This document shows, piece after piece, positions 3,493 to 52,414 of a DNA stretch of 64,000 nucleotides (positions are counted from its first letter, which is position 1; each line of letters opens with the position of its first letter). The translations under genes and the position numbers were made by a program. Origin of the DNA: a virus (taxonomy: Duplodnaviria; Caudoviricetes); the IMG/VR virus record IMGVR_UViG_3300045595_000041, positions 1 to 64,000 of that record; one strand, written 5' to 3'. The notes under the pieces are model-generated. The model was not told the origin of the DNA. It saw only the letters and a list, made by a program, of their open reading frames with translations, and made no database searches.

Positions 3493-3597
3493 TATATCAC
3501 AAGATTAACGACGTTTATCTCTAGTAACATATAGTATTAAGTATATATAATTAATAATACTTGAAATTCTAGGTCACTAGAGATAAACGTCATCATT
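3493..3597. repeat. Dispersed palindromic element, copy A
   Basis: GACGTTTATCTCTAGT 3510-3525 / ACTAGAGATAAACGTC 3576-3591; ACGT cores at 3511 and 3587; axis AA|TT at 3550/3551. Confidence 0.9.
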
Positions 3598-3620
3598 TCA
3601 AACAAAAAAAGGAGATTCTA

Positions 3621-4757
3621 ATGCTTAGAATCGTAGACATAAGCAATTTCAAGGCAGATGTCAATCCAGCAGCTCTTGATTGCGATGGCTTAGTAGTCCA
3701 GTGCACTTGGGGTGCAGGAGAGCTGACTGTCAATGGCATAGTCAACTCTGTATGGCAAGTAGCAGATTCCAAGATACAGTCTGCTGCTGGATCAGGCAAA
3801 GCTGTAGGGTACATGCACTACATCAGAGGCGTTGGTGCTGAAGCAGAAGCTCAGTTCTTTGCCAAGTCTACTGAAGGCTACCTTCACAAGTTCGTTCCAT
3901 CTGTAGACTGGGAGGGTGGAGACAATGCAGCTTGGGGCAATCCAGGCTATCTAGACAGATGGCTTGCAGAATACATACGCATAACTAATGTGCATCCTGT
4001 AGTATATCGTCAGCGTTCAGTTGCAGGCTCTGTAGACCCTATAGCTGCAAAGTACAATTGCATGGTATGGGATGCGATGTATGCAGACATGAACCCCACA
4101 GGCTGGCAGACTGATCCATGGGACATGGCTGGATATGCTATGCGCCAGTTCACTTCATCTGGAACTATCGGCGGCTATAACGGCAGACTTGATCTTAGCA
4201 TCTTCGTTGGAGACAGAAACGCTTGGAACAAGATAGCTGGTGGCAATGGCTCAGCTCCTGCTCCAGCACCTACTCCTGCACCGTCTAATGCAACCACTGT
4301 AAATGTTCATTATGGACTTCATCAACTAGGTGCTGGCTGGCTTGGAGATGTAGTCAACTTCAACAATGCTAATGACAATGGCTTTGCTGGATATCCAAAT
4401 CATCAACATGACATGCTTTATGCTTGGGTAGACAGAGGACGTCTTGACTACTCAGTCCATACTTTGCAAGACGGATGGCTTCCATCGGTCATGTATGGTG
4501 ATCCAAGAGACACTGTCAACAAATGCGCTGGAGTATTCGGTCATGCTATAGATGGAGTCAAGTTCTACTACACGACTCCGAATGGTGAGAATCTGAAGCA
4601 AGCATGGTACAGATCTCAGACGACCCAGAGAGCAGGATGGCTTGGGACTTGCTGCGATGATGGAAAGTCTGTGCCTGGCTTCGATGGCTTTGCCGGTGTG
4701 CTTGGTGAGCCTCTTGACAGACTTCAGCTAGCTATAGCAAGCAGCAATCCCTTCTAG
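3621..4757 (+). CDS. Endolysin (GH25 muramidase plus C-terminal cell-wall-binding repeats)
   Basis: IVDIS, VDWE, RQFTS and LDLS GH25 motifs; PAPAPTPAP linker; GWL-containing C-terminal repeats. Confidence 0.88.
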   Translation: MLRIVDISNFKADVNPAALDCDGLVVQCTWGAGELTVNGIVNSVWQVADSKIQSAAGSGKAVGYMHYIRGVGAEAEAQFFAKSTEGYLHKFVPSVDWEGGDNAAWGNPGYLDRWLAEYIRITNVHPVVYRQRSVAGSVDPIAAKYNCMVWDAMYADMNPTGWQTDPWDMAGYAMRQFTSSGTIGGYNGRLDLSIFVGDRNAWNKIAGGNGSAPAPAPTPAPSNATTVNVHYGLHQLGAGWLGDVVNFNNANDNGFAGYPNHQHDMLYAWVDRGRLDYSVHTLQDGWLPSVMYGDPRDTVNKCAGVFGHAIDGVKFYYTTPNGENLKQAWYRSQTTQRAGWLGTCCDDGKSVPGFDGFAGVLGEPLDRLQLAIASSNPF

Positions 4758-4787
4758 TCATGTATCAAAGCTTGCAATAGCAAGTAT

Positions 4788-4837
4788 GCAGTTTCATATG
4801 GTTGGCATGCTTATGCAGGTGCCAACCTGTGAAATGC
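4788..4837. terminator. Long hairpin downstream of endolysin
   Basis: TTTCATA.GGTTGGCA...TGCCAACC TGTGAAA extended stem. Confidence 0.5.
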
Positions 4838-7831: not shown

Positions 7832-7936
7832 TATATCACCAGATTAACTACGTTGTTATCTAGTGACTTCTTAGTATAAGTCTTATAAATTATATATACA
7901 TGAAATTCTAGATCAACACAGGACAACGTCGTTAAT
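7832..7936. repeat. Dispersed palindromic element, copy B
   Basis: ACGT cores at 7850 and 7926; axis AA|TT at 7889/7890. Confidence 0.85.
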
Positions 7937-7968
7937 GTTAAGTATCTAGTAGTAAACATGCCCAGTAT

Positions 7969-7997
7969 TTTACTTTTGTACAATATTGTTATATAAT
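7969..7997 (+). promoter_or_regulatory. Sigma70-type promoter
   Basis: TTTACT-N17-TATAAT; ATG at 8004 suggests a leaderless transcript. Confidence 0.75.
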
Positions 7998-8003
7998 ATA
8001 AAT

Positions 8004-9797
8004 ATGGCATATGAAATGAAAACATGCAAAAAATGTGGAAAGCAATTCAAAGTAGGAGTAGTAGACGGTCTTTGCAGACATTGCAGAACAAAGACTTTCA
8101 TTTGCAAGACTTGTGGCAAAGAATACTTAAGCATTAAAGAATTGCCTGAATGTAAGGAGTGCCAAGATTCTCATTTCGAATGGAAATGCGATATATGCGG
8201 CAAGATATACAAGACTAAGAAAAGCTTAGCTAATCATAAGAAATATCATGATGTCAGCTTTAGAGACAAAATGTCAGAAAAAATGAAAGGTAGAATTTTT
8301 TCTGATGAAACTAAAGCAAAGATGTCTGCAACTAGAACTGGAAAGAAAGATTCTGAAAAGACTAGAGCTATCAAATCTGAAGTCATGAAGAAAAGATGGG
8401 ACTCTCCAGGGTATCGTGAAGCGTATCATAAGAACAATGTTGGCAGAATAGAATCTGAAGAGCAGAAAGCGAAACTGTCTAGAAAAGCTTATGAACGATG
8501 GTCGAATCCAGAATTCAAAGCTAGAATGACTAAGATAATTAGAAATACTACACCAGAAGTCATGAAAAGACCTGAAGTCAGGAAAGCTATTTCTAATGGT
8601 AGAAAAGCTTATTTTGCTAAGCCTGGATCTCTTGAAAAACACGGCCTCATAACTAAGAAATATATGAGCAGGCCAGAAGTTAGAGCTAAACTGTCAGCAT
8701 CGATATCAAAAGCTATGAACATGCCTGAACACAAAGCTAAAATGAAAGCTATTAGAGATAGCCCTGAATTTAAAAAGAAGACAAGAATAACAAGAATGAG
8801 AAACATTGGATGGTCAGAAGATCAGATCAGGTTCTTTGAAGATGATGAATATGCAAAGAAAACGATAGAAGATTCAAAGTCTAATACGTACTATTCATTT
8901 ATGAAAGACTTAGGATTGTATTCTCAGAAAGTTGGTAGACGTATACGTGAATTAGATTTGCAAGACAAGTTTCTTGGGAATAATAGGATTCAGCATTCTC
9001 AAGGAGAGTTGGAGCTTCTAGATTTTATCAAAACTTTTGATGAAGATGCATGCTGCGATAGAAAAGCTCTTAAAGGGAAAGAGCTAGATGTCTATTCAAA
9101 AAAGAACAAGCTTGCTTTCGAATTTGATGGACTGTACTGGCATTCTGAACAGCGTGTTGGAAAAACTGCAGCATTGCAAAAGACTGAAAGTTGCAATAGC
9201 ATAGGAATTCGACTTGTCCATATATACGAAAATGAATGGTGGCATAAGCAAGAAATTGTGAAGTCTATGATAAGGTCTTCATTTGGAAAAGACAGAAGAA
9301 TATTTGCAAGAAAATGCGAAGTAGTTGAAGTATCTTCTAGCGAATCTAAAAAATTCTTAGATTCTAATCATCTTCAAGGAAATGTCAATAGCAAGTATAG
9401 ACTTGGATTGTATTTCAATGGAGAGCTTGTTGCAGCCATGACATTTGGAAAGCCAAGATTCAGCAATTTTGATGGAATAGAGCTACTGCGTTTTGCAAAC
9501 AAGATGGGTGTCAATGTTGTTGGTGGCGAATCTAGACTATTCAAGAACGCTATAAGAATCTGGGGATTCGACAAAGTCATATCTTATTGTGACAGATCGA
9601 AGTTCACTGGCAACGGCTATACAAAGATTGGAATGAAATTTGAAAGATATACTGATCCTTCATATATTTGGACAAATGGAATAGATATACGATCAAGATA
9701 TAGCGTTCTGACAAAAGATGAGTATGAAAGCATGTCTAAAGCTGGTTATTGGAGAGTATTCAATTGCGGAACGTCTGTATTCACTTGGCAATTATAG
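8004..9797 (+). mobile_element. Free-standing homing endonuclease (Hef-like)
   Basis: Zn ribbons and a C2H2 finger; NUMOD3-like SDETKAKMS repeats; ELDVY...AFEFDGLYWH nuclease motif; C-terminal FARKC...HLQG...ELLRFA...SYCDR domain; AT-richer than flanks. Confidence 0.75.
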
Positions 9798-9840
9798 TCT
9801 GATTATTGTTTAGCCTATTCAGCAAATTTTCTTGCATATG

Positions 9841-9851
9841 ATATAATCATA
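9841..9851 (+). promoter_or_regulatory. Candidate late-promoter motif ATATAATCATA (also at 12375 and 15338)
   Basis: Identical 11-mer upstream of three virion gene blocks, with no TTTACW -35 box. Confidence 0.4.
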
Positions 9852-9884: not shown

Positions 9885-10088
9885 ATGTCAAAGCCATTAT
9901 TTCCTACAGCAAACCGTGGCAGCTTTGAGAATAAGCTTGATGAAAAGTTTAGTGAACTTGAAGCTGGCGGTTCAGCAGATTTGACAGATTATGCAAAAAA
10001 GACAGAAGTAACTGGTAATATCGACTTCACAAAGTTGACACCAGCTCAGATAGCAGCTTTGAAAGCAGCTATGCTTGATACTCTATGA
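9885..10088 (+). CDS. Small hypothetical (virion-associated?) protein
   Basis: RBS AAGGAG; LTDYAKKTEV fibre-like motif. Confidence 0.55.
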   Translation: MSKPLFPTANRGSFENKLDEKFSELEAGGSADLTDYAKKTEVTGNIDFTKLTPAQIAALKAAMLDTL

Positions 10089-10537
10089 CTACTATACAAT
10101 TAGATGAATATTCTATAGACATTGACTCGTCAGAATCATTTGCATACAATTTCGCAATAAGCGGCGACGACTTCATCAATCTCAATGGCATTGGCTATTG
10201 CAAGACTCAGCGTCAGCAAGCTTACAAGAATCATTTGATGAATGTAGCTAGAGACAATCTCAGAGAGATGGGTGCAAAAGCTGCTGAGAGCAACTTGCCA
10301 TCAGAACCCATTTCTAAAGCTTTTATAGAAGTCGAATGTCTTAACAAGACTAACAGAAAATTTGATGCACCAAACTTTGCAGTCACATTCAAGCATATAG
10401 AAGATGCTCTTGTATCAGCAGGTGTTCTTGTAGATGACAACAACAATGTCGTAAAAGGCACTTTGTTCAAAGAGCTGAATGAAGACAGAAACAGAGATGC
10501 TTATCAGATTCGAATAACAGTGCATAAGCTAAACTAG
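10085..10537 (+). CDS. rusA: RusA-like Holliday junction resolvase
   Basis: RKFDAPNFAVTFKHIEDALVSAGVLVDDN matches the RusA D-x-x-N..K..D.L..G...DD motif. Confidence 0.75.
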   Translation: MTTIQLDEYSIDIDSSESFAYNFAISGDDFINLNGIGYCKTQRQQAYKNHLMNVARDNLREMGAKAAESNLPSEPISKAFIEVECLNKTNRKFDAPNFAVTFKHIEDALVSAGVLVDDNNNVVKGTLFKELNEDRNRDAYQIRITVHKLN

Positions 10538-12236: not shown

Positions 12237-12343
12237 GATATCACAAGAATTATCACGTTTATCTCTGTGAACTTCTAGTATCAAAGATATATAATTATAT
12301 ATACTTCAAATTCTAGGTCAATCTGGATCAACGTCGTCAATCT
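12237..12343. repeat. Dispersed palindromic element, copy C
   Basis: ACGT cores at 12255 and 12331; axis AA|TT at 12294/12295. Confidence 0.88.
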
Positions 12344-12418
12344 AGCATAAAGCATTGCTACGCTTGAGCGATTGATATAATCATATTATAAGGCATAGCA
12401 AAAGAGTTAGGAGAAGCT

Positions 12419-22675: not shown

Positions 22676-22792
22676 GATATCATCAGATTAACGACGTTTA
22701 TCTCTATGAACTCAGAAGTATAAGTATATATAATTTATAATACTTCAGATTCTAGATCATTAGATAACAACGTCGTTATTCTTGATGATGTC
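22676..22792. repeat. Dispersed palindromic element, copy D
   Basis: ACGT cores at 22694 and 22770; axis AA|TT at 22733/22734; right arm overlaps the 3' end of the minus-strand ORF. Confidence 0.88.
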
Positions 22793-24370: not shown

Positions 24371-24374
24371 TGAT

Positions 24375-24403
24375 TTTACATGCTCTACTTTATATGATAT
24401 AAT
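24375..24403 (+). promoter_or_regulatory. Sigma70-type promoter
   Basis: TTTACA-N17-TATAAT. Confidence 0.75.
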
Positions 24404-24455
24404 AAAACTATAAGTTTAAGAAGCATAGCATTTTGCAGAAAGGCAATGCTTTCAT

Positions 24456-27849: not shown

Positions 27850-27851
27850 AT

Positions 27852-29760: not shown

Positions 29761-30216
29761 ATGCAGAATATAGATGGATTGTTCGTATCAGATTCGAAAG
29801 TCAATCTAATGCCGTCAGAACGACTTGACATAAAGAATGCTATTGAAGCAGAATCGAACAGCTATCAGACGAAGTCTTCATTTGATGCAGCAGATTCAGC
29901 AAATGCTATCGAAAGCTCTGCAAGGCATTTTGCAGAAAGATTGATAAGCAGAATCAACAGCATTGGATATCAGTGCTTCGTATCATCCAACATAAAGGAT
30001 GAAGACAACTGGACTATGTATTCTGATGGCACTATGATGTGGACGCCTAAAGTCAATCTTCTTGGCAGATATGATGCTAAGAAAGCTAAGCAAGAGACAG
30101 ACTATGACAAGCTTCAGTGGCAATGTCAGCATGGGTATGTCGATGGGAAGGTTGGAAAGCTTAAAGGTGGCAATGATTGGACTGATGATGTAGACAAGAC
30201 AAGCGTATTATTCTAG
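29761..30216 (+). CDS. Hypothetical protein
   Basis: RBS GAAAGG before ATG 29761. Confidence 0.65.
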   Translation: MQNIDGLFVSDSKVNLMPSERLDIKNAIEAESNSYQTKSSFDAADSANAIESSARHFAERLISRINSIGYQCFVSSNIKDEDNWTMYSDGTMMWTPKVNLLGRYDAKKAKQETDYDKLQWQCQHGYVDGKVGKLKGGNDWTDDVDKTSVLF

Positions 30217-30314
30217 AAATTACGACGTTTATCTCTAGTGACTTAGAATTGCAAGTGTATATAATTAATAACACTTAATATCGTAAGTCACTAGAGAACA
30301 ACGTCGTTAATCTG
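30215..30314. repeat. Dispersed palindromic element, copy E
   Basis: TCTCTAGTGACTTA/TAAGTCACTAGAGA arms; ACGT cores at 30225 and 30301; axis at 30264/30265. Confidence 0.9.
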
Positions 30315-30378
30315 ATTGTATGTCTGATTAATATGCAATATATGAATGTAGACTACATGCAGTCAGCAAGATGCTGAT

Positions 30379-30407
30379 TTTACTTTCGTTAATAGTTGTT
30401 ATATAAT
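30379..30407 (+). promoter_or_regulatory. Sigma70-type promoter
   Basis: TTTACT-N17-TATAAT. Confidence 0.75.
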
Positions 30408-30447
30408 ATAAATACATTGAAAAATGAACAGGAAGGAATGACATATT

Positions 30448-32915: not shown

Positions 32916-32916
32916 T

Positions 32917-32945
32917 TTTACATTGCTAAAAATATGGTATATAAT
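32917..32945 (+). promoter_or_regulatory. Sigma70-type promoter
   Basis: TTTACA-N17-TATAAT. Confidence 0.75.
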
Positions 32946-32981
32946 ATAACTAATTAACCTATTAAGGAAAGGTTCTTAGTT

Positions 32982-35078: not shown

Positions 35079-35936
35079 ATGACTGTCATGAGACCTGCTG
35101 ACTACTTCAAGACAATTGATGCAGTGTACATCAATCTAGATGTTGCCACAGAAAGACGAGCCTCTATAGAACACGATTTTGGCAATGCATTCAGAAGTCT
35201 TACAAGAGTAGAGCCTGTTCATTTCGACGACATGTTTTCAGCCGGTGTAGATGCTAAAATCAGGCTTATGGAATCTGCTAAAAGCTATGATGAAAAAGGA
35301 TATTTCAAATGTTCAGAGCAATACAAGGAGATAAGTGCTGATCGTTTCAAGAAGCGAAAAGGTGGCAGCGTCCATGCTAATTCTGTATGGACACCAGAAC
35401 AGTATGCTGCACAAGAAAGCCTGTCTCAAACATCTAGAAAGATATTGCAAGCTTTTCTTAACACGTCTTTAAGTAGTTTGATGATTCTTGAAGATGATGC
35501 TCGCGCTAGAGATTTCATGAATCAAGAACTTGACATTCCAGATGCAGATATATTAGTGTGGGGTGGGGCTGTTACATCTGCGCAGTCAGACGCAGACAGA
35601 TTCGCTAAGACAAAATCATTCAGCTTCACCAAGATCAATGGAAAGCATAGCTCTTGGTATACAACAGCATATGAAGTGTCAAGACTTGGTGCAGCTAAGC
35701 TTCTTGAAGAGTATCTTGCTCGTCCTGCTTACACTACAGATACAGTATGGCGATATGCTTTTGATGAAGTAGACACATACAGGCTTTCACCAATGGGCTT
35801 TGTTCAGGGAGCGTCATCATATCTAGCTGATGCAGGCGTAGCAATGCCATTGACTAGAGATGAAGCTGCAGCGTATTGCTTCGAAGACATGACACATCGG
35901 ACTAGGATTGTACAAAAGAACAGAATGGTTATATAA
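35079..35936 (+). CDS. Glycosyltransferase family 25-like (paralogue of 34214)
   Basis: YINLD..ERR, MILEDDA; long identical stretches with the upstream gene (NSVWTPEQYAAQESLSQT). Confidence 0.75.
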   Translation: MTVMRPADYFKTIDAVYINLDVATERRASIEHDFGNAFRSLTRVEPVHFDDMFSAGVDAKIRLMESAKSYDEKGYFKCSEQYKEISADRFKKRKGGSVHANSVWTPEQYAAQESLSQTSRKILQAFLNTSLSSLMILEDDARARDFMNQELDIPDADILVWGGAVTSAQSDADRFAKTKSFSFTKINGKHSSWYTTAYEVSRLGAAKLLEEYLARPAYTTDTVWRYAFDEVDTYRLSPMGFVQGASSYLADAGVAMPLTRDEAAAYCFEDMTHRTRIVQKNRMVI

Positions 35937-36473: not shown

Positions 36474-39400
36474 ATGTCATACATAGGACTTCATCAACAC
36501 GCTGATTCTTCATGTTTGGATGGTTTTCAAACTCGTCAAGAACTTGTTTCAAGAGCAAAAAGTCTTGGCATGAATGCTGTAGCTATAACAGATCATGGAA
36601 CTTGCGCAATTCATGTCAAGTTTGCGCAAGAATGTGCTAAGCAGTCAGATGACAATCTTACTATCAAGCCGATATTCGGTATAGAGTCATATCTTGTAGA
36701 CGATGTTCATGATATCATGACAGACAGGATAGCTCATACTAGAGCTGGAAAAGTCAAATACAATAAAGAGACTGGCGAGCCTGAATTAGAGAAGCAAAGA
36801 GCTTCAGACTTCAATCATTGTTGCTTATGGGCTCAGAATGACAAAGGCTTGGAGAATCTTTGGACTGTGTCTACTCTTTCATATACTGAAGGGTTCTACA
36901 GAAAGCCACGTATTGACTTCAATATGCTTAAGAAGTATGGTGAAGGCTTGTTCATATCCGACGGTTGCATGCTTTCTAGAGTATCAAGATGCATAGCTAA
37001 CGATGATATCAAAGGTGCAGTTGCATGGGAAAAGAAGCTTATTGATGCTGTTGGCAAAGAAAATGTGCTTGTAGAGATTCATACATGGCAATTCTGTGAC
37101 CCAAAGACTGAAGAGCAGTTCAATCTAAATAGCATAATGACGAAGACTAATAAAGTCAAGATTGAAATTGCTAAAGAGCTTGGTCTTAGAACTATAGCAG
37201 TCAATGATGCTCATTATGCAAAAAGAGAAGACTATCGCTGGCATGAGCTTGTATGGCAGTCAACTACAGGAAAAGGTAGCGATCTGAATGATGACAAGAC
37301 TAGTGGTCGTGGAGAGACAGCCGCTTGGGTCATGTCCGAAGATGAATGCTTCTATTGGCTAAAGAAGCATGGTCTTGATGACGAAGACATTCAGACAGCT
37401 ATAGACAATACTCAATGGGTTGCAGATCATTGCAATGCAAAAATCAAATTCGGCATGGTGCCACCACGATATGGTGACTCTAAGGAAGACGATGACAGAC
37501 TGCTTGAGAAGCTTGTCTTAGAGGGTGCTAGAGAAAGAATTCCTTCTGTAGATCAAGCTCAAGAATATATGGCAGAGCTTAAGAAAGAGCTTGAGCTTAT
37601 AGAGAAGACAGACTTGTCAGGATACTTCCTTATTGTCTGGGATTATGTCAACTTTGTCTTGTCAGATGACGAAGATGGTTCTAAGTATGGAATAATAGGC
37701 AAGAAAGCTTCACTGCTAGGTTGCGGAAGAGGCTCGAGTGGAGCTTCAGTAGTATGCTACTTCTTAAGGATTACTAATATCGATCCAATAAAGAACAGAC
37801 TGTATTTCGAACGCTTTCTTACTGCAGGTCGTGTTGTATCGTCTGTCAACATCAAGTTTGAAGATGGATGGAAGAAATTCTCACCATCTGAAAAGATAGC
37901 TCTATCTGATGGCACAAGCAAAGATGCATGGAAGCTTTTGTATGAAGAAGATGATACAGAATATGGGAAAGAGTTAGATTCTAGTTTCGATTTCAAAGAC
38001 TGTCCAGATATCGATCTTGATTTTGAAGCTTCAGTCATTCCACAAGTAGATGCATATCTTAAGAAACGCTGGGGCGAATGGAATGTGTGCAGAATCGGTA
38101 CTGAACTGCAAGGCAAGATATCTACTGCTGTTCATGACGTGTTTGCTATCCATGGATACTCTTCTTCAGACATATTCAGTCTAAATCGGAAGATTGCTGC
38201 AACAGGCTGGGATACTGGTGAATATATGGAGCTTCAGACTTATGAAGACTTCATAGAATGCATATCTAAAGATGAAGACCTTAAGAAGATTGTAGATGAG
38301 ACAGAGTACTTCAAAGAAGCATGGAATTTCGGTGGAAGAATCAGGACATATGGCGTACACGCTTCAGGATATGTGATATCTAAGAATTCGTTGCTTGGCA
38401 AGATTCCTCTTCGTGTTGCACAAGGTATTCTTGTCACGCAATTTGCTCATGATCAAGTTGCAGACATGGGATTCATAAAGTATGATGTTCTGAAGCTTTC
38501 TTCTCTTGGAACTATACGTGAAGTATATGAGAATGTACACGGCAAGATCGATCCAGATCGCATCTATTCTGAAATGCAGAATGACAAGCTATTTGATGGC
38601 GCTACTATATGGAAGCAGACATGGGATGGGGATGTCTTGGGCATATTCCAGCTAGATACTCCATTAGGCAAGACGACTGCAACTAATGCTATGATCAATT
38701 CAGTGTCTGACGCTGGCATGATTACTGCTGTTGACAGGCCAGGTCTTGTAAGAAGTGGGCTTATCAAAGACTTCTACAAGGTCAGAAAAGGCGAAGAGGG
38801 ATGTCCAAGCTACCATCCATTCACAGATTCTATTCTTGAAGAGACTTCAGGCTTTGTCGTATATCAGGAGCAGATCATGAAGATCTACTCTAGACTATGC
38901 AACATGAATATGGAAGAAGCAGACAATGTAAGGAAGGTGTTCTCTAAGAAGCAAGTCACTAAAGTGCCTGCAATGAAGAAGTTGCTTTATGACGCATGTC
39001 TTAATGACAAGAACTTCATAGACAATGTTCCTACGAAGTACTCATCTCCTGAAGAATGCCTTGACGATCTATGGGTTGGAATATCAAGAACAGCAGAATA
39101 TAGCTTTAACTCTGCTCATGCAAAAAGTTACGGGATGATAACAGCATATGAGCAGTACATGAAGGTCAGATGGCCATTGCTTTTCGTATGTGCATCTTTG
39201 AATACAGATCCAGGTCAGACAGATTTTTTGAAGTATGCTATAGTCCATGGATACAAAGTCAAGACTCCGAATGTCAATAAGTCTACTGACAGATATGTAG
39301 TCGATGATGATACGATATACATGCCCATGTGGTCGATAAAGGGTGTTGGTGGCAAAGCTGTTGAAGAGATTCTCAATAACGGTCCATATTCATCATATGA

Positions 39401-39971
39401 CGATTTTCTAGACAAGACTACTGGAAGAGGTGGACGCAAGAAGAATGTGCTTCAAAGTCTAATATCAATAGGTGCTTTCGATGGAGTAGATGAAAGAAGC
39501 AGATATGACCTGATGTGCGCATTTGCAGAATCTAAAGGGCTAGAAAAACCATACAAGAAGAATTTCGAATCAGACAGAATAATCGCTAAGATCGAGCAAG
39601 AGCTGCTAGGCGTATCACTGTCATATGACGATGTATTGGACAACAAAGACTGGCTTATGTCTGAATCTCCTCAATCGATGGCAGGCCTTATGAAGACTGA
39701 TGTAGGTGAGTCTACTAAGATTGCTGGCAAGATAACATCTACTAAGACTAAGAATGCTAAGAATGGCTTGATGGCATGGGTAACGCTTAAGCTAGTGTCT
39801 CAAGAAGAAGTCAAGATAACAGTCTTTGCAAATTCGTATTCTAGATTCAAAGACTATCTTTCTACTGGAGACTTAGTATCGATAATGTGCAAAAGAAGCT
39901 CAGATTTCAATGGTGCTCCATCATTCATATGCAACTATGTATTCAATGAATCTATGCAGCAAGACAAATAG
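36474..39971 (+). CDS. dnaE: DNA polymerase III alpha subunit (family C)
   Basis: PHP LHQH..S.LDG and AITDHG; GRGS; FERFL; PDIDLDF; HASG; KYDVL; YQEQIM; FNSAHA; C-terminal OB fold. Confidence 0.95.
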   Translation: MSYIGLHQHADSSCLDGFQTRQELVSRAKSLGMNAVAITDHGTCAIHVKFAQECAKQSDDNLTIKPIFGIESYLVDDVHDIMTDRIAHTRAGKVKYNKETGEPELEKQRASDFNHCCLWAQNDKGLENLWTVSTLSYTEGFYRKPRIDFNMLKKYGEGLFISDGCMLSRVSRCIANDDIKGAVAWEKKLIDAVGKENVLVEIHTWQFCDPKTEEQFNLNSIMTKTNKVKIEIAKELGLRTIAVNDAHYAKREDYRWHELVWQSTTGKGSDLNDDKTSGRGETAAWVMSEDECFYWLKKHGLDDEDIQTAIDNTQWVADHCNAKIKFGMVPPRYGDSKEDDDRLLEKLVLEGARERIPSVDQAQEYMAELKKELELIEKTDLSGYFLIVWDYVNFVLSDDEDGSKYGIIGKKASLLGCGRGSSGASVVCYFLRITNIDPIKNRLYFERFLTAGRVVSSVNIKFEDGWKKFSPSEKIALSDGTSKDAWKLLYEEDDTEYGKELDSSFDFKDCPDIDLDFEASVIPQVDAYLKKRWGEWNVCRIGTELQGKISTAVHDVFAIHGYSSSDIFSLNRKIAATGWDTGEYMELQTYEDFIECISKDEDLKKIVDETEYFKEAWNFGGRIRTYGVHASGYVISKNSLLGKIPLRVAQGILVTQFAHDQVADMGFIKYDVLKLSSLGTIREVYENVHGKIDPDRIYSEMQNDKLFDGATIWKQTWDGDVLGIFQLDTPLGKTTATNAMINSVSDAGMITAVDRPGLVRSGLIKDFYKVRKGEEGCPSYHPFTDSILEETSGFVVYQEQIMKIYSRLCNMNMEEADNVRKVFSKKQVTKVPAMKKLLYDACLNDKNFIDNVPTKYSSPEECLDDLWVGISRTAEYSFNSAHAKSYGMITAYEQYMKVRWPLLFVCASLNTDPGQTDFLKYAIVHGYKVKTPNVNKSTDRYVVDDDTIYMPMWSIKGVGGKAVEEILNNGPYSSYDDFLDKTTGRGGRKKNVLQSLISIGAFDGVDERSRYDLMCAFAESKGLEKPYKKNFESDRIIAKIEQELLGVSLSYDDVLDNKDWLMSESPQSMAGLMKTDVGESTKIAGKITSTKTKNAKNGLMAWVTLKLVSQEEVKITVFANSYSRFKDYLSTGDLVSIMCKRSSDFNGAPSFICNYVFNESMQQDK

Positions 39972-40076
39972 ATTAACGACGTTGTTCTCTGTTGACTTAG
40001 AATATTAAGTATATATAATTATATATATAGTATACTAGGTATTCACAGAGATAAACGTGATGATTCTGAGTATATA
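39970..40076. repeat. Dispersed palindromic element, copy F (inverted relative to C and G)
   Basis: ACGT cores at 39979 and 40055; axis at 40018/40019. Confidence 0.88.
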
Positions 40077-41175: not shown

Positions 41176-41902
41176 TGCATTGTCTAGCATAGAGTTTATG
41201 CCTGAGAATGTTCCAGTCTCAGCTAATTTCAGCTCAGATGACGCATACTACTACTGCGATGAATGCGGAGACAGGTTCGATTCTATAGGAGCTCTCAACT
41301 TTCACAAGACTAGCTTCCACTATGACAGATGGAAAGACATTGACAGTGCGCAGTATGATGCTGGACAGACATGTCTCTATAATGGCACTCAATGGCTATG
41401 GGGCGAATTCAAGAAGGAGCATGCTTTGCCAGATGTAGTCTTTTCGTTCGACTATGACAGATACATACATAGAGACGACTACGACAAGAACATCATGCCA
41501 GCATTCTTCAAAGACAAATGCAAAGACTTGCGAACAGGGCTTATGTACGATCTTTTGTCTTTCAGCTATCAATGGAAGATGCTTGACCCTTATGCTAAAG
41601 CTGCTTCTCTAGCACATACAGCTGCTCACATAGAGTACATGAATAGTGGAAGAGTCGTTACTAAGAAGTTCAGCCATGGAAGAGTCTTCAAGAAGATAGC
41701 TGAATCATATCTGCTAGAATGCTCAAGAACGCAAAATGGCTGGGATGCTACTTATGCTACTAAGAAGTTCAAAGACAGATACAAGGGAGCATGCAAAGAG
41801 CTTGCAAGATATCATCCGCTTGCCGTAGTAGAAGAAGGAAGAAGAAAGAAGCTATGCAGCGCAGAAAGTAGCAAGCTATGCAATCTTCCGAAACTGATCT
41901 GA
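41162..41902 (+). CDS. Hypothetical protein with C2H2 zinc finger
   Basis: YYCDECGDRF...L..H...H. Confidence 0.65.
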   Translation: MNSSDALSSIEFMPENVPVSANFSSDDAYYYCDECGDRFDSIGALNFHKTSFHYDRWKDIDSAQYDAGQTCLYNGTQWLWGEFKKEHALPDVVFSFDYDRYIHRDDYDKNIMPAFFKDKCKDLRTGLMYDLLSFSYQWKMLDPYAKAASLAHTAAHIEYMNSGRVVTKKFSHGRVFKKIAESYLLECSRTQNGWDATYATKKFKDRYKGACKELARYHPLAVVEEGRRKKLCSAESSKLCNLPKLI

Positions 41903-41903
41903 T

Positions 41904-41932
41904 TTTACTTTCTGCAATTGATGTTATATAAT
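41904..41932 (+). promoter_or_regulatory. Sigma70-type promoter
   Basis: TTTACT-N17-TATAAT. Confidence 0.75.
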
Positions 41933-41967
41933 TAAATTATAAAAAATGAAAAACGAAAGGATATGTT

Positions 41968-43319: not shown

Positions 43320-43337
43320 CTTATTTTTACTATCGAT

Positions 43338-43366
43338 TTTACAAATGCAGAATTTTGTATTATAAT
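43338..43366 (+). promoter_or_regulatory. Sigma70-type promoter for the tRNA region
   Basis: TTTACA-N17-TATAAT. Confidence 0.75.
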
Positions 43367-43375
43367 AAAACTATA

Positions 43376-43695
43376 AGGTTTAATCCAATCATAATGCGGT
43401 TGCCTTGAAACGGTTGAGGCTAGTTAGATTCCTTTCAGACCTTGATTGTTTCGTTAATTGTTGCATGCATCTTAATGGTGCATGCAACTTTAATCTTTGC
43501 AATTCAAATATTGCATTTTGGGTAATATGGTACTGTATGTAGAGTGTTCTGTATATTGTTGATGTTCGATTCATCAGTTACCTACGCAGTTTCAGTAGGC
43601 TATGAGTTAGCAGCATGACGAAAGTCATCATGGTTATATGTGACCACTAACGAGCTGAATGCTATAGCATACAGTCTGGTGCAATGCCAGACATT
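43376..43695 (+). pseudogene. Degenerate tRNA-like/structured RNA remnants
   Basis: Ser(UGA)-like remnant 43376-43442; T-arm TGATG-TTCGATT-CATCA plus GTTACC acceptor-like end 43521-43583; multi-hairpin 43606-43692. Confidence 0.35.
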
Positions 43696-43769
43696 GCCTT
43701 TGTAATTCAACTGGATAGAATGCCCGTCTTCTAAACGGGATGTTGCGAGTCCGAGTCTCGCCAAAGGCA
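43696..43769 (+). tRNA. tRNA-Arg(UCU)
   Basis: GCCTTTG/CAAAGGC acceptor, ATTC/GAAT D-stem, CCCGT-CTTCTAA-ACGGG anticodon arm, GCGAG/CTCGC T-stem; no encoded CCA. Confidence 0.88.
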
Positions 43770-46283: not shown

Positions 46284-46289
46284 TCCGAT

Positions 46290-46318
46290 TTTACTTTTTA
46301 TTGCCTATAGTATATAAT
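46290..46318 (+). promoter_or_regulatory. Sigma70-type promoter
   Basis: TTTACT-N17-TATAAT. Confidence 0.75.
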
Positions 46319-46342
46319 ATAATTATAGACTTGGAGACAACA

Positions 46343-46885
46343 ATGGCTAATTCTCATGAAAGCTTCCCAGACTGGCATCAGCACGAAAAAGACATATCTG
46401 ACATGATTCAAGCTGATCAGACCACAGCTTCTGGTTCCGTATGGTATGACAAGACAGACGTGACGACAAGAGAGCATCCGTTAGATAGAGAAGTGCAATT
46501 CCAAGCTGATGGAAAGTCAACTCACTTCAGCAAGTATTCTATCGATGTGCATTTCATGGAAGAGAACAGACTTCGTGCAGTTAAGACTGGCAAGATCTTC
46601 CTTCTTCCTGTTCGTTTCGAACTTACGCCAGACAGACATGAGAAATACGACTATGTCGTTCTGTCAATGGACGATTTCAGATTCGTCACTGGTCTAGACG
46701 AAGTGAAAAGCATGCGAGAGAAAGATGCTAATCGCAAGAACAAAGAAGCTGCATTCAAGAACAAGATATCAGCCGTCATCGAGTCACTTTACAATATGGC
46801 TGCAGACAATAAGCTGTCTTGTAATGAGCTAAACATCATATACAAAGCTTGCGATGCTCTCGATGAAGGCATGAATGAACTGTGA
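46343..46885 (+). CDS. PD-(D/E)xK Holliday junction resolvase-like nuclease
   Basis: HEKDI...TTASGS...KTD...ADGKST...YSI. Confidence 0.6.
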   Translation: MANSHESFPDWHQHEKDISDMIQADQTTASGSVWYDKTDVTTREHPLDREVQFQADGKSTHFSKYSIDVHFMEENRLRAVKTGKIFLLPVRFELTPDRHEKYDYVVLSMDDFRFVTGLDEVKSMREKDANRKNKEAAFKNKISAVIESLYNMAADNKLSCNELNIIYKACDALDEGMNEL

Positions 46886-47740: not shown

Positions 47741-47756
47741 TTTTTTGTCATATGAT

Positions 47757-47785
47757 TGTACATTGTCAATCATTTGATATATAAT
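47757..47785 (+). promoter_or_regulatory. Sigma70-type promoter (variant -35)
   Basis: TGTACA-N17-TATAAT. Confidence 0.6.
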
Positions 47786-47821
47786 AATAATACTATAAAA
47801 TACAAAAAGAAAGGATTCATT

Positions 47822-48253
47822 TTGAACAAAAGCAACAAAGACTTTCTAAGCAAGAAAGCTTCACAATTTGATTGGGAAGACATCCTCAATTCACAGATGG
47901 CATTGCAATCTGCTTATCATGTAGATTTGAATGCTAAAGGCAAAGATAGATGCCGTCTGATAAAAGACATGGCTTTCTCATGCGAATCAGAGCTTCATGA
48001 AATGTTGCAATGTGTTTCATGGAGAGACTGGTCTGATAGTGATGACATAGATGAAGATGGCGTAAAAGAAGAGCTACGTGACTCATTCCAATTCTTCGTC
48101 AATCTTATGCTAATAATGAAAATGTCACCTGAAGAGCTATTTGAAAGAGTCAAGTCCAAGCAGAATAAGAATTGGGACAGAATCTCTTCTAATTACAGCG
48201 AGCATATCAATTCTAAGGATTCTGATGGATCAGACTATAGTAATGCAATCTGA
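47822..48253 (+). CDS. All-alpha dNTP pyrophosphatase (dimeric dUTPase/dCTPase/MazG-like)
   Basis: ESELHEM...WRDW...KEELRD..F.. and K.NKN..R motifs. Confidence 0.75.
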   Translation: MNKSNKDFLSKKASQFDWEDILNSQMALQSAYHVDLNAKGKDRCRLIKDMAFSCESELHEMLQCVSWRDWSDSDDIDEDGVKEELRDSFQFFVNLMLIMKMSPEELFERVKSKQNKNWDRISSNYSEHINSKDSDGSDYSNAI

Positions 48254-49035: not shown

Positions 49036-50328
49036 ATGGAAGAAGCAACTAAATTAGAAGACATGGCTGTCTACTTGATGACAGATCTGACTTCATTGAA
49101 GAGAATGTACTCTCTTGGTCTTAGAGAGACTTACTTCGATGATCTATTGAACAAGAAAGCATTTGCGTTCTCTGTAGAATACTGGCAAGGTTCTAATCTT
49201 AAGAAAGCACCTACAAGCAGTCTGCTTGAGAAGGAAGTCCCAAGCCTACATGTGAAGTCGACAGACATATCTGCTACATATATAGTTGATGCTCTTAAGA
49301 AACGGCTTATATCGAACAGGATGAAAAGAGCTTTGCTGGATTCGGCAGACTCTTTGAAAGAGCATCCTAAAGAAGCCCTAGAAATTCTGTCTAATCAGCT
49401 ATGGTCTATTTCGAAGCAAGCTAAAGACAGAAAGAATGTCTCGGAACTGTATGATACTGTAGAAAGTCGAAAAGAACGATATCATAAGCGTTCTAAGATG
49501 TCGAAGAATGGTCTTATTGGCGCATCTATAGGTTTCCCAGAGATCGATCAAGTCACAATGGGTCTTGCAAATGGAGAGCTATGCACAATAGCTGCTCCTA
49601 CTAAGACTGGCAAGACATGGATTGGCCTAAAGATTGTTGCAGAAGCTATGAAAGCTAAGAAGAGAGTAGTCTTCTTCACGCTTGAGCTTTCTGTAGCAGA
49701 TATCGAAGATAGACTTGACGCTATTCTGTCTGGCGTATCATATTCAAGGCTTTCTACAGGCACATTGTCATCTATAGAGATTGGAAAGCTGTCAAAGATT
49801 CAGCAGTCATATGATTCATATGGAAAAGTACTGATTTCTAAGCCACGAATAGGTGAAAGAACAGTTCCAGACATGATGAAAGTAATACGAGATTTTGATG
49901 CGGAGTTAGTAGTCATAGACCAGCTTTCATTCATGGAAGCATCGAATCCTGGAACATCAAAGACAGAGAATGCATCTAGAATAATCGATGAGCTTAAGAT
50001 GTCGATATCTGAAGACGAAGACAGCATGATTCCAGTCTACTTGCTTTCTCAGATGAATAGAGCTGCTTCATTCACAGAGAATGGAAGAGGAAAGCTGACT
50101 AATATCGCTCTTACTTCGAACATAGAGAATGCTTCAGATCTGATAATAGGCCTTGGCTCTACTAAAGAGCAGAGAATCAACAACACTATGGTTCTTGAGA
50201 TTCTTGGGTCAAGACGAACTAGCATGAGGTCTTGGCTGATATATCGAAATCTTCAAGACAAGACAGACTTCCACGTCATAAAAGAGATGACAGAGGATGA
50301 AGACGCAAGCGAAGAGGTAGAATCATAA
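49036..50328 (+). CDS. dnaB: DnaB-like replicative helicase
   Basis: APTKTGKT, FTLE, VIDQL, SQMNR, IENASD. Confidence 0.9.
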   Translation: MEEATKLEDMAVYLMTDLTSLKRMYSLGLRETYFDDLLNKKAFAFSVEYWQGSNLKKAPTSSLLEKEVPSLHVKSTDISATYIVDALKKRLISNRMKRALLDSADSLKEHPKEALEILSNQLWSISKQAKDRKNVSELYDTVESRKERYHKRSKMSKNGLIGASIGFPEIDQVTMGLANGELCTIAAPTKTGKTWIGLKIVAEAMKAKKRVVFFTLELSVADIEDRLDAILSGVSYSRLSTGTLSSIEIGKLSKIQQSYDSYGKVLISKPRIGERTVPDMMKVIRDFDAELVVIDQLSFMEASNPGTSKTENASRIIDELKMSISEDEDSMIPVYLLSQMNRAASFTENGRGKLTNIALTSNIENASDLIIGLGSTKEQRINNTMVLEILGSRRTSMRSWLIYRNLQDKTDFHVIKEMTEDEDASEEVES

Positions 50329-51371
50329 TGCACTACATTCCAGGTAGAAGCTTGAGAATAGCTTTCGTCACGCATAAAAGCAATCTTCATGGAAGCCTGA
50401 CTTGGTTCAATTCTATGAAGGAGATAGAGTTTTTGAAGCAAGTATTCAAGGGCTCTGTTGTTGATGGCGTAAGCATGAAGCCTGATGCTAAAGATTTCAA
50501 TACTACGTTCAAGCAGGCATCTAAAAGACGTTACGACCTGATCGTCATGAATCTTCAGAAGAAGTATGATTCTGAAAGAAAGCACGCTGGCTTCAAAATG
50601 ATGAATGATTTCATCAAGCAATCTGAAGCGCCTGTGCTAGCGCTTGTAGATGATGTAGTGATAGCAGAATCGCCATCTACGAATATGTCTTCTTTCGACA
50701 ACAAGATGGCAGTGATAGGAATGAAGATAGACAGCAAGAAGCTGAAAGATGCTGGATATCATAATGTCGTCATCTCTAACAGAATCAAAGACATGTCTGT
50801 CATGCTGAAGTCAAATAGACGTTTCATTACTTCGGCTAAGTCTGTAGACTTCGCTTACATTGGAATGCTTCGCAACAAGAGACTTAGACTAGTAGTAGAT
50901 GCTTTCAATGCTCTTTCGAGAGCAGGATATTCATGCAAATTCTATGGAGCTGATGCTATCTATGACATGGATTCAGAAGAATCTTCTAATATTCTGCATT
51001 CTGCTGAGTTTGAAGTGCTAGACAAAGTAGATGCTGATAAAGTAGTAGACGTCATGTCTGAAGCTATATACTCCATTCTTCCAAGATACGATTATGGAAA
51101 AGACATATTCTCAAACAGGATATACGAAGATGATTCTGCTAACTGCTTGATGCTAGCAGATGAGCAATATGGCCTCCATGACATTTTCGATAAGGAAGTA
51201 AGATATCAGAATGACAAGGATCTGATAGCTTTAGTCAAGCTGTTCGATGATCATCCAGAACTGCAGTCGTACATGCTTGACCAGCAGCATGTAAGCGTAG
51301 AGAGAGAATATCATGCTTCCAGAGCAGAGCTAGAGCAAGCTTTGATAGATTCTGTAAAAGAGCTTCTGTGA
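50328..51371 (+). CDS. T4 DNA beta-glucosyltransferase-like GT-B enzyme
   Basis: Collinear, by recall, with T4 Bgt: RIAF, KEIEFL, YDLIVMN, ALVDD, DFAYIG..R, KFYG, S.AI..I, RIYE..A...L.DE.Y, ML..QH; similar length. Confidence 0.65.
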   Translation: MHYIPGRSLRIAFVTHKSNLHGSLTWFNSMKEIEFLKQVFKGSVVDGVSMKPDAKDFNTTFKQASKRRYDLIVMNLQKKYDSERKHAGFKMMNDFIKQSEAPVLALVDDVVIAESPSTNMSSFDNKMAVIGMKIDSKKLKDAGYHNVVISNRIKDMSVMLKSNRRFITSAKSVDFAYIGMLRNKRLRLVVDAFNALSRAGYSCKFYGADAIYDMDSEESSNILHSAEFEVLDKVDADKVVDVMSEAIYSILPRYDYGKDIFSNRIYEDDSANCLMLADEQYGLHDIFDKEVRYQNDKDLIALVKLFDDHPELQSYMLDQQHVSVEREYHASRAELEQALIDSVKELL

Positions 51372-52288
51372 TGAGCTTAGGAAGACTTTCTGCTATAGAG
51401 ATAATCAGAAGATATCGTCCAGACAGCAGAATCATAGTAAGCGGAAGCTGGATACGACATTCTTGCATAATCGATACGGTAGATCCGCATCACAATCACG
51501 GTGACAGAAATCCGTCTGCAGGTCTGAACAGCCAATCTGGAGCTTATCTTTGCTTTGCATATTCTGCTCATGCTTTGTCATTCAACAAGCTGAAGCAGAT
51601 AATGCATCTGCAGTATGACTTCGAGTCTGAAAGAAGAGAGCTGCCATCTGACTTCAAGAAAGCTATGGAGTCTAAAGTATCGAATGATGACAAGCATCTC
51701 ATAGACCTAAGACCATACAAGCGAGTCAATCATCAATACATGCTAGACAGGGGCTTTCTAGAGTCTACTCTTGATGCTGCAGACATAAGGTATGACGACA
51801 TCAATGAAAGAATAGTCATACCAGTGTATGAAGACGGAATGTGCGTAGGATATCAAAGCAGAGCAATAAGAGATTCTCAGTTCCCAAGATACAAGAACAG
51901 CAAAGGCTTCGACAAGTCAGAGCATGTCTATTCGATATCTGCTTTAGACGAATCTATGCCATTGATCGTATTCGAGTCACCAATGTCTGTAATGCGAGCT
52001 TATGACTATGGCATGACTAATTGCGTTGCGACATTTGGAAGCAAGATATCTGACAAGCAAGCTGAATTCATCAATGCATTTAGAGATGTTTTGCTATGGT
52101 TTGACGGTGATGGTGCTGGTCAATGGGGAATAAGGCAAGCAATCAAGAAGCTATCATCTACTGACCTGAGGATAGTGGATTCTAAAGACCTTGGCACTAA
52201 AGACATAGCTGACATAAGTCAGAATGAAGCTATAGTCAAGATAGTCTCAGCTAAGACTGCTTTAGAATACGCTATTGATTATATTTGA
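51368..52288 (+). CDS. dnaG: DNA primase (DnaG-type TOPRIM)
   Basis: HGDRNPS, RIVIPV, PRYKNS, VFES, FDGDGAG, KDIAD. Confidence 0.88.
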   Translation: MMSLGRLSAIEIIRRYRPDSRIIVSGSWIRHSCIIDTVDPHHNHGDRNPSAGLNSQSGAYLCFAYSAHALSFNKLKQIMHLQYDFESERRELPSDFKKAMESKVSNDDKHLIDLRPYKRVNHQYMLDRGFLESTLDAADIRYDDINERIVIPVYEDGMCVGYQSRAIRDSQFPRYKNSKGFDKSEHVYSISALDESMPLIVFESPMSVMRAYDYGMTNCVATFGSKISDKQAEFINAFRDVLLWFDGDGAGQWGIRQAIKKLSSTDLRIVDSKDLGTKDIADISQNEAIVKIVSAKTALEYAIDYI

Positions 52289-52306
52289 TATTAGATAGCT
52301 ATTCTG

Positions 52307-52414
52307 TATATCATCAGAATTACGACGTTTATCTCTATGAACTTCAAGTATCAAAGATATATAATTATATATACATAAAATTCTAAGTTCACAGATAACA
52401 ACGTCGTTAATCTG
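52307..52414. repeat. Dispersed palindromic element, copy G
   Basis: ACGT cores at 52325 and 52401; axis at 52364/52365. Confidence 0.9.

Follow-up and report, generated by a model that had tools for sequence, protein, structure and literature searches.

A dispersed quasi-palindrome of about 100 bp with promoter-like arms and base-exact geometry behind gene ends of a tailed phage and its relatives

The stretch analysed here, referred to as the window, comprises positions 1-64,000 of the 90,205-bp virus record IMGVR_UViG_3300045595_000041 (G000), a tailed phage whose long open reading frames (ORFs) lie nearly all on the plus strand. It carries seven dispersed copies of a quasi-palindrome that is about 100 bp, sometimes about 125 bp, in length. 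With a probability of roughly 0.35, we read the element as a symmetric site on duplex DNA that is recognised by protein, has promoter-like arms and may serve as a combined promoter and terminator punctuation mark. This reading starts from the anatomy, geometry and placement of the copies, the lack of covariation between their arms and the exchange of arms between loci; protein recognition, promoter activity and any effect on transcripts are what we infer. Phage genomes are usually regarded as punctuated by ordinary promoters and hairpin terminators, whereas here a symmetric 100-bp element of base-exact length marks the ends of gene blocks.

Copies, arm anatomy and distribution

An earlier inspection of this stretch from its letters (the sequence-only reading) had reported seven palindromes with ACGT cores 76 bp apart, an AA|TT dyad in every copy and a position after a gene end at intervals of 4-12 kb, all of which proved correct. 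The pattern ACGT-N72-ACGT occurs exactly seven times in the window (3511, 7850, 12255, 22694, 30225, 39979 and 52325) compared to 0.17 expected matches, and none of 100 shuffled sequences reached seven. The dyad is AA|TT in 7/7 copies. All seven follow the end of a plus-strand ORF, with a start-to-start spacing of 4.3-12.3 kb; these and all further placement figures are based on gene calls from a greedy ORF map, made with no gene finder. The copies form one 127-nt repeat family, with 61-76% identity to the reference copy.

Each arm consists of one unit of about 50 bp. Read towards the dyad, this unit comprises an outer ACGACGT box, a TCTCTGTGAAC box, a 10-bp spacer and a TATATAA core. Counted from the dyad, positions 1-10 are conserved, with TATATAA ending at the dyad, while positions 11-20 are variable in sequence and constant in length, which resembles a promoter spacer. 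Positions 21-33 (TCTCTGTGAAC) are conserved, positions 34-35 are variable and positions 36-47, the ACGACGTT region, are conserved again. Arm conservation ends at around position 49. The A+T core, TATATAATTATATA, is flanked by two inverted 29-bp boxes. Both arms follow one consensus, with an information content of 58.5 and 58.7 bits, respectively, over 75 positions. The previous description was right about the palindrome and its fixed spacing, but had missed the single unit in every arm, the exchange of arms between loci and the link to transcription-unit punctuation.

Copy A (3493..3600, dyad after 3550) is located between an ORF ending at 3472 and the ORF of a GH25-type endolysin starting at 3621, with no separate promoter between them. 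Copy B (7832..7940, dyad after 7889) has the major head protein ORF (ending at 7748) upstream and a promoter-like site at 7969-7997 downstream. Copy C (12237..12345, dyad after 12294) follows an ORF ending at 12216 and precedes a TGATATAAT word at 12373-12381. Copy D (22676..22790, dyad after 22733) stands directly after the ORF of a 2418-aa tail protein (ending at 22663), at the end of the structural gene block. Copy E (30207..30320, dyad after 30264) abuts an ORF ending at 30216, with a promoter-like site at 30379-30407 downstream. In the case of copy F (39961..40076, dyad after 40018), the stop codon of the DnaE-type polymerase ORF (ending at 39971) falls inside the left flank, and the next ORF starts at 40109. 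Copy G (52307..52415, dyad after 52364) has the primase ORF (ending at 52288) upstream and a promoter-like site at 52423-52451 immediately downstream.

A profile built from the seven copies, the search that had been suggested for the genome and its relatives, yielded six further copies in G000 (dyads after 66856, ~69001, 70293, 73978, 77932 and 85062), so that the whole record contains 13. By a pattern scan of IMG/VR, eight additional contigs with 1-19 copies each were detected. The spacing is near-invariant across these relatives: in nine records, 38 of 40 pairs of 8-mer boxes have a distance of 78 bp, the remaining two pairs being 79 and 76 bp apart. In G000, the two 8-mer boxes are nearly confined to the copies (10/10 and 10/11 occurrences). 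Merged profile matches amount to 106, distributed over G000 (13), G004 (16), G003 (17, plus one found later), G008 (19), G002 (14), G005 (15), G001 (11) and the 4.5-kb fragment G007 (1). From these, 88 good copies were kept, for which an AATT-like centre, complementarity at 26 or more of 50 positions and sufficient flank were required; 18 copies that were partial, mis-centred or at contig ends were dropped, including copies H and I of G000. Omission of copies that are at least 90% identical left 56 non-redundant copies. Relatives were oriented by majority ORF strand. Since the related genomes are few and partly close kin, counts over all 88 copies are not independent.

The records fall into clade 1 (G000, G004 and G007) and clade 2 (G001, G002, G003, G005 and G008). 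G004, a 108-kb record, is 91-95% identical to G000. Between G004 and G003, no more than about half of the genes have a match; the median identity of the shared proteins is 39%, with a best value of about 60%. Only one flank of the element has a weaker, outermost inverted motif, which reaches about position 62; in clade 1 this is mostly the left flank, in clade 2 mostly the right one. Beyond both clades, the unrelated phage G006 (62 kb, 32% G+C), which has only a few nucleotide-metabolism, helicase and lysin genes in common with them, carries one full copy with outer boxes and spacing unchanged, two or three weaker copies and one solo arm. A scan with the arm pattern added one clade-2-like fragment. 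In metagenomes, 26 loci were found, 18 of them clade-2-like, along with a few short contigs in which boxes and spacing are unchanged and the inner sequence differs. Some of the related contigs have human-gut record names. In one genome each of 185,579 bacterial and archaeal species, a collection that may lack the host genome, only two pattern matches were obtained, both of which appear to be due to chance. Literature searches with motif strings and keywords found no description of this repeat.

In clade 2 (e.g. G003, oriented positions 79555-79600 and 113860-113900), the right flank of many copies contains CTGAGAA twice in direct orientation at a distance of 11 nt, as well as a conserved TATTCTAAT-like stretch immediately upstream of the ribosome site of the next gene. 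These may be a further regulatory signal specific to clade 2.

Promoter-like arms, pairing between arms and transcript ends

The distance of a copy from a stop codon is about 0-30 nt, and about 20-150 nt separate it from the next start codon. Measured from the dyad, the distance to the stop codon is mostly 47-85 nt and that to the next start mostly 46-200 nt; several stop codons lie inside the flank of the element. Downstream of 21 of the 88 copies (7 from clade 1 and 14 from clade 2), among them B, E and G, there is a promoter-like site of the form TTTAC-N17-TATAAT, in agreement with the earlier statement that several copies are directly followed by a promoter. A TGnTATAAT or plain TATAAT word follows six further copies (three in each clade), giving 27/88 in total, while no TATAAT-type promoter word was found ahead of the next gene for the other 61. 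Where promoters are present, they are downstream of the element at varying distance (+58 to +208). Being strictly at gene ends and always ahead of promoters where these exist, the element appears to belong to the punctuation of transcription units.

The sites after copies B (7969-7997, TTTACT-N17-TATAAT), E (30379-30407) and G (52423-52451) are stand-alone, on the plus strand and outside the repeat. They are part of a second repeat family of near-identical, strong promoter-like sites (GATTTTAC, 17 nt, TATATAAT), with 18 members on the plus strand of G000 compared to one on the minus strand. Family members in the window are located at 7966-8021, 24372-24427, 27849-27904, 30376-30431, 32911-32952, 41901-41956, 43335-43375, 46287-46342, 47751-47792, 52420-52475, 54901-54956, 56135-56177, 60077-60132 and 61511-61566, all on the plus strand. 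They are concentrated in the half of the genome devoted to replication and nucleotide metabolism, while the structural gene block has hardly any. Another promoter-like word, TGATATAAT, is of the extended -10 type, lacks a clear -35 and often has GTT before it; it occurs in gaps of the structural gene region (window 9839-9847, 12373-12381 and 24395-24403; G004 oriented ~36700, 47950, 75140 and 80640). With four matches in the window against 1.5 expected, its enrichment is weak taken alone; it is a possible middle or late promoter class.

As the phage's own -10 word, TATATAAT is present 28 times in the window (4.1 expected), ten times at element centres and otherwise mostly in the stand-alone promoters of the plus strand. 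The sequence-only reading had noted TATAAT facing outward on both strands, and a central TATAAT on both strands is indeed present. A perfect TATAAT spans the dyad on the sense strand in 62 of the 88 copies and on the antisense strand in 42 (both strands 31, sense only 31, antisense only 11, neither 15), so that 31/88 copies have perfect overlapping -10 hexamers on both strands, as is characteristic of bidirectional sigma-70 promoters. Four arms in the window score 10-11/12 in a sigma-70 scan. In G006, the solo arm is separated by 5 nt from the preceding stop codon and by 26 nt from a downstream ATG that has a strong ribosome site. It is the one clear case of its kind, and the idea that solo arms act as ordinary promoters was discarded. 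Bidirectional promoters arising from -10 symmetry are documented in bacteria (PMC10268837).

In the most probable form of the duplex-DNA site, two promoter-like units would face each other and share one palindromic -10-like core, each unit having TATAAT, a -35-like box at a distance of 16-17 bp and conservation up to about -55. RNA polymerase, alone or with some factor, could engage the element in either orientation. Since the two units face each other, read-through transcripts would automatically carry a long hairpin (on average about -33 kcal/mol). One element of about 100 bp might then end or process the upstream transcript and restart transcription, and new copies and arm variants would spread by recombination and gene conversion between copies.

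Several observations weigh against this. The -35-like box matches TTGACA at a mean of only 3.4 of 6 positions in both arms, and conservation is highest at the central AATT, where two -10 hexamers should have their maxima at -11 and -7. The predicted divergent starts would be separated by about 15 bp, compared to the usual 18 bp (PMC10268837). Loss of the outer box appears to be as frequent in sense as in antisense arms, although this is an impression and not a formal count, and copies that lack another promoter downstream do not have a sense -10 more often (Fisher p 0.62 and 0.77). The arms are almost always paired in clades 1 and 2, which is not required of plain promoters: 207 of 212 arm matches fall in known elements, and the other five comprise two that form one further full element in G003 and three in G006. 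With the genes all on one strand, a leftward antisense promoter has no evident use. ORF and domain scans together with a comparison of shared genes found no candidate binding protein. G006 did not help to name one either: besides nucleotide-metabolism, helicase and lysin genes, it shares only a 64-aa protein, with clade 2 only and with no Pfam hit. Frequent gene conversion could also hold both arms near the consensus without any protein. This weakens the step from conservation to protein recognition, and an RNA hairpin and a selfish repeat hence remain serious rivals.

The former rival supposes that the element works at the RNA level, as a hairpin which terminates or attenuates transcription, is cut by RNase III or stabilises the 3' end of the upstream mRNA, with conservation of the arms as a by-product of purifying selection and gene conversion. 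We hold this to be possible, if rather unlikely. On either strand, five of the window copies fold far better than shuffled sequences (z -5 to -9.7), and the mean folding energy is about -33 kcal/mol. It also speaks for the hairpin that copies always come after a stop codon and ahead of promoters where these are present. Canonical terminator-like sites are not in excess (15, 11 and 15 compared to 12.5, 10.3 and 10.8 in shuffled sequences), and therefore something else must end or process the transcripts, a point that counts for the combined promoter and terminator mark as well. On the other hand, copies B (z -1.5) and C (z -1.4) fold like shuffled sequences, in the range of about -1.2 to -1.5. 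No Rfam family matches the element. Efficient termination would silence the next gene at 61/88 copies, because no TATAAT-type promoter lies between. As an intrinsic (rho-independent) terminator, the element has neither the G+C-rich stem nor the T-tract: its stem of about 45 bp is A+T-rich and imperfect, and the terminator scan lists none of the seven window copies. A run of at least four T in the 12 nt after +47 was found in only 5 of the 56 non-redundant copies, and at least five T in 8 nt in 4 of the 56.

Comparison of the two arms provides additional means to separate constraint on RNA from constraint on DNA. In 27 copies (13 from G000 and 14 from G003), standard pairs make up 69.1% of cells compared to 68.4 ± 0.8% with shuffled 3' partners, a value reached in 107 of 500 shuffles. 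The covariation score is 0.171 compared to 0.157 (48 of 500 shuffles as high). Covariation was thus not detected in the 27 copies. For the 56 non-redundant copies, Watson-Crick cells give an overall z of 1.5 against shuffled partners, and no single arm position departs from shuffled pairing at P<0.01 in either clade. By region, clade 1 is null (z -1.7 to 0.1), while clade 2 has an excess at positions 21-33 (z 4.5) and 36-47 (z 2.9). This excess shrinks genome by genome and was traced to one locus with a box changed alike in both arms, and to one copy that is one base out of register. Overall, about 60-69% of positions pair (393 of 650 ungapped positions in the 13 G000 copies), with positions 11-20 at chance level. 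The poorly paired central 40 nt is constant in length, which also counts against the hairpin.

Folding energies are in line with this result. Real copies reach -33.2 kcal/mol compared to -31.5 for chimeras of left and right arms on the plus strand, and -33.1 compared to -32.2 on the minus strand; those of clade 1 fold worse than their chimeras (-27.8 compared to -32.4 kcal/mol). On the coding strand, 177 G:U-type cells face 204 A:C-type cells, so that no preference for G:U is apparent. Pairing between the arms is therefore not under selection. Concerted evolution, which is demonstrated below, can hide covariation, and the frequent mismatch at positions 34-35 resembles an internal loop; both points speak for the hairpin. 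A selected mismatch at these positions (TA in one arm, GT in the other) was considered and dropped, being marginal in clade 1 (P 0.04-0.06) and absent in clade 2.

The fixed-length unpaired region, the equal block-wise conservation of both arms, the absence of covariation and of a G:U preference, and a consensus shared despite 39% protein identity argue that the arms are constrained as duplex-DNA sequence and that the hairpin is a by-product. The sequence-only reading had preferred a symmetric protein-DNA complex over an RNA terminator on account of fixed spacing combined with imperfect pairing. The finding that arms pair no better than chance partners supports this preference.

Arm exchange, mobility and replication

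The two arms of a copy evolve as independent half-sites. Partner arms resemble each other (0.650) about as much as they resemble the remaining arms of their genome (0.643). Among 22 arms of G000, eight have their nearest match in the G004 ortholog and 14 in a paralogous arm, six of these in the same and eight in the opposite orientation. Copy C is an example: its right arm and the left arm of the copy at 73978 are 98% identical, compared to 60% between the two arms of C itself. Between G000 and G004, four of 12 orthologous copies (A, B, C and E) are only 67-69% identical, with zero indels, while their flanks are 74-91% identical. As best matches are paralogous and divergent orthologs are free of gaps, arms must have been copied between loci independently and in either orientation, with their length kept. 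Copy F had been described as inverted; it is most similar to C and G in reverse complement, but this reflects the arm-by-arm mosaicism of most copies and not a single flipped copy. Where G008 and G005 have a tandem pair, G002 has one hybrid copy. Such arm-by-arm gene conversion is a clean natural case of concerted evolution of dispersed repeats within a virus.

Although the element consensus is nearly identical in both clades, only three copy positions are common to them: after the polymerase gene (copy F), after one tail-region gene and after the giant tail protein gene. Copies must therefore have been gained at new sites. This gain, the copying of arms and the hybrid copy would also be expected of a selfish or neutral recombining repeat of the REP/BIME, ERIC, Correia or MITE (miniature inverted-repeat transposable element) kind, spread by recombination or a transposase, tolerated at its sites and with at most incidental effects. 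We regard this as unlikely on balance. In its favour are also the relative of the same geometry in the unrelated phage G006 and the gain and loss of small genes right beside copies, without a second copy. The arms, being inverted copies of one unit, form terminal inverted repeats as in MITEs, and MITEs common to viruses and hosts have been reported (bioRxiv 10.1101/2024.01.18.576219).

Signs of transposition are missing at the copies themselves. No boundary at 44-69 nt from the dyad has direct repeats of at least 4 nt in more than 2 of the 56 non-redundant copies, as a target-site duplication would. Copy positions are stable among close relatives: in 233 flank comparisons, 181 showed a syntenic copy at the expected spacing, the remainder were indels or rearrangements, and no clean empty site was found. 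An IS605-type tnpB is the sole transposase gene; it has ends of its own, and its insertions lie beside the palindromes. No transposase is tied to the copies, and the view that they are no decaying MITE is upheld. The scan of bacterial and archaeal genomes gave no real match. Block-wise conservation (positions 21-33 and 36-47 kept, 11-20 free) and the strict length argue for selection. Rearrangement breakpoints are near copies in 23/53 and 12/47 cases, compared to a share of gap length of 40% and 30%, respectively. A role as recombination linker was rejected for this reason: breakpoints are enriched 2-6 times relative to the genome fraction, but not relative to other intergenic gaps.

The tnpB gene (OrfB_IS605 and a Cas12f1-like TNB domain, 420 aa) is present once in G000 (L091 11507-12769, corresponding to 75507-76769 of the record) and twice in G004 (oriented 36746-38014 and 88040-89283), at different places and with 71-73% identity. 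One of these copies is inserted after a TGATATAAT word, about 60 nt downstream of a palindrome. G004 contains a 1.45-kb insert with tnpB at copy D, where a reversed tnpB lies between an inverted duplicate of D's left arm and D. The palindromes as ends or derivatives of IS605/TnpB elements were discarded, since tnpB copies have other ends and the insertions are beside and not through palindromes. No RAYT (Y1 HUH) transposase domain was detected in the 65, 30 and 60 ORFs scanned. Integron attC sites were rejected too: no tyrosine recombinase or integrase was found, and indels beside copies lack a second site.

An involvement in replication or recombination would make the copies distributed origins, enhancers or break sites for recombination-dependent replication, with inverted protein-binding boxes around the easily melted TATATAATTATATA core. 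The architecture of boxes at a fixed distance around an A+T core fits, and independent exchange of arms is expected if breaks or crossovers occur at the core. G000 encodes a DnaE-type polymerase, a DnaB-like helicase and its loader, a primase, an NAD ligase, a UvsX-like recombinase and two resolvase-like proteins, and a recognised replication initiator was not found among its proteins. However, 11-19 copies per complete or near-complete genome, all at gene ends, do not resemble what origins need. The G+C skew climbs smoothly across the window without switches at the copies, and no binding protein was found. A better candidate for an origin is the non-coding stretch of about 480 bp at 23880-24360, which lies behind the structural block and ahead of the first promoter. 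It contains dense tandem and inverted repeats (a 22-nt unit repeated 2.2 times at 100% match, A+T-rich iterons of 10 and 21 nt, and a short palindrome present twice), and is a candidate replication origin or genome-end region; G004 has a similar iteron stretch. Positive evidence for the origins or hr-like enhancers proposed earlier was not obtained, and we consider replication sites improbable.

The same inspection had also proposed that the copies are cruciform substrates for two encoded Holliday-junction resolvases. Both genes exist, one RusA-like (10085-10537) and one matching phrog_2002 (46301-46885), and the perfect 14-bp A+T palindrome at the centre could nucleate extrusion. With only 393 of 650 ungapped positions pairing in 13 copies, positions 11-20 pairing at chance and pairing not under selection, this role is very improbable.

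A broader version of the duplex-DNA reading is conceivable, which we put forward tentatively and regard as unlikely. Some sequence-specific protein, or RNA polymerase with a phage or host factor, would assemble symmetrically on the two inverted 29-bp boxes 78 bp apart around the melt-prone TATATAATTATATA core. The resulting genome-wide punctuation complex might insulate transcription units, fire both ways or nucleate breaks and recombination, with half-sites reshuffled between loci by repair at the core. We know of no such system described in phages. Should the element be a protein-read hybrid of promoter and terminator, or an insulator, it would represent a compact new way to organise transcription in uncultured phages, a landmark for operon annotation and a natural part for synthetic phage design. 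That it evolves as two half-sites and is common to clades diverged to 39% protein identity adds to its significance.

Gene content of the phage and comparison with known systems

Other genes of G000 encode a WhiB-like protein and the GH25 endolysin. The closest named relatives of the capsid protein are distant (32-35% identity) and include cluster-C-like mycobacteriophages, Gordonia and Rhodococcus phages and Eggerthella phage LE2-3, while endolysin look-alikes are mostly of Bacillota or viral origin. A megablast search of 10 kb against a phage collection gave no match to a known phage. The genome features a major set of nucleotide-metabolism genes (ThyX-like protein, dCTP deaminase, dUTPase, MazG-like pyrophosphohydrolase, nucleoside deoxyribosyltransferase and HD-type dNTP hydrolase) alongside three or four glycosyltransferase-like genes. 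These are found in the window at 30448-31401, 34187-35059, 47756-48253, 50328-51371, 53416-54417, 55608-56147, 56184-56675 and 56669-57214, and beyond it at L091 10303-10734. Their presence suggests hypermodified, perhaps glycosylated, DNA. Part of the nucleotide-metabolism set is what the unrelated phage G006 has in common with G000.

Directly after the major head protein gene and copy B, a gene for an HNH/NUMOD homing-endonuclease-like protein of 603 aa (7986-9797) has its own promoter; clade 2 has a 36%-identical counterpart at the same place without the palindrome. The adjacent paralogous genes at 34187-35059 and 35079-35936 are a tandem duplication, their DNA being about 70-83% identical in several blocks at 865-nt spacing. 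The ORF at 61531-62235 contains a perfect 15-nt tandem unit at 62130-62183 (three overlapping 24-nt copies, 100%). A tRNA gene at 43696-43769 is the sole match of the Rfam scan. It follows a promoter of the stand-alone family (43338-43366) and, within about 100 nt of that promoter, the only convincing canonical terminator of the window (43460-43488; 12-bp stem and T-rich tail). Promoter, terminator and tRNA gene may form a small non-coding RNA unit.

Among known repeats, those of the REP/BIME type appear closest in evolutionary behaviour. REP/BIME repeats, especially BIME-1/RIP, in which two inverted REPs surround an IHF site, are G+C-rich host elements mobilised by RAYT and bound by protein as DNA. 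Like the element described here, they are intergenic, located after stop codons and about 100 bp long, consist of inverted units around a defined linker, are conserved in sequence without covarying and form hairpins as RNA. In contrast, no RAYT/Y1 transposase and no bacterial copies were found here, and the core is A+T-rich and promoter-like. ERIC, Correia and MITE-like palindromes measure 100-150 bp, are imperfect, occur in transcribed intergenic DNA in both orientations and in some cases have promoter or terminator activity. The phage element is likewise an imperfect intergenic palindrome, but target duplication, empty sites or a host counterpart were not found for it in the comparisons above.

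The hr sequences of baculoviruses, which are animal viruses, are clusters of 30-bp imperfect palindromes at several sites, bound by dimeric IE-1, and act as enhancers and candidate origins. The phage copies share with them the dispersal of imperfect palindromes, yet each stands alone, measures 100 bp and is tied to a gene end, and the search for a binding protein gave no candidate. Herpesvirus oriS also has inverted protein-binding boxes flanking an easily melted core. The RNase III sites in early mRNAs of T7 and SP82 are repeated, conserved hairpins of about 50-60 nt between genes in polycistronic transcripts and are selected as RNA. The element differs from these by the lack of G:U preference and covariation and by its unpaired centre of constant length.

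In functional terms, the closest analogues would be the promoter-early stem-loop (PeSL) motifs of T4-type phages and bidirectional promoters with -10 symmetry. PeSL motifs are composite repeats of a stem-loop and a promoter that are linked to recombination and to gene gain and loss (Comeau et al. 2014, PMC4122927). Both are small, conserved regulatory repeats that are dispersed between co-directional genes and combine terminator-like with promoter-like parts. By PeSL standards, a palindrome with central TATAAT is present in 7/7 window copies and a separate TATAAT-type promoter after 27/88, the activity being putative. Several indels of 0.6-3.7 kb abut copies, without enrichment over other intergenic gaps. 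In PeSL motifs, the stem-loop stands beside a promoter and occurrence is mainly in hyperplastic regions. Here, the promoter-like units themselves form the palindrome with geometry fixed to the base, copies are genome-wide, breakpoints do not exceed intergenic expectation and no sequence relation is seen. In bidirectional sigma-70 promoters, divergent starts are usually 18 bp apart (Warman et al. 2021, cited after PMC10268837). These promoters and the element have in common that TATAAT is present on both strands at one place, where polymerase could bind in two ways. The element would differ by a start spacing of about 15 bp and by constituting a repeated 100-bp family with boxes conserved to -55.

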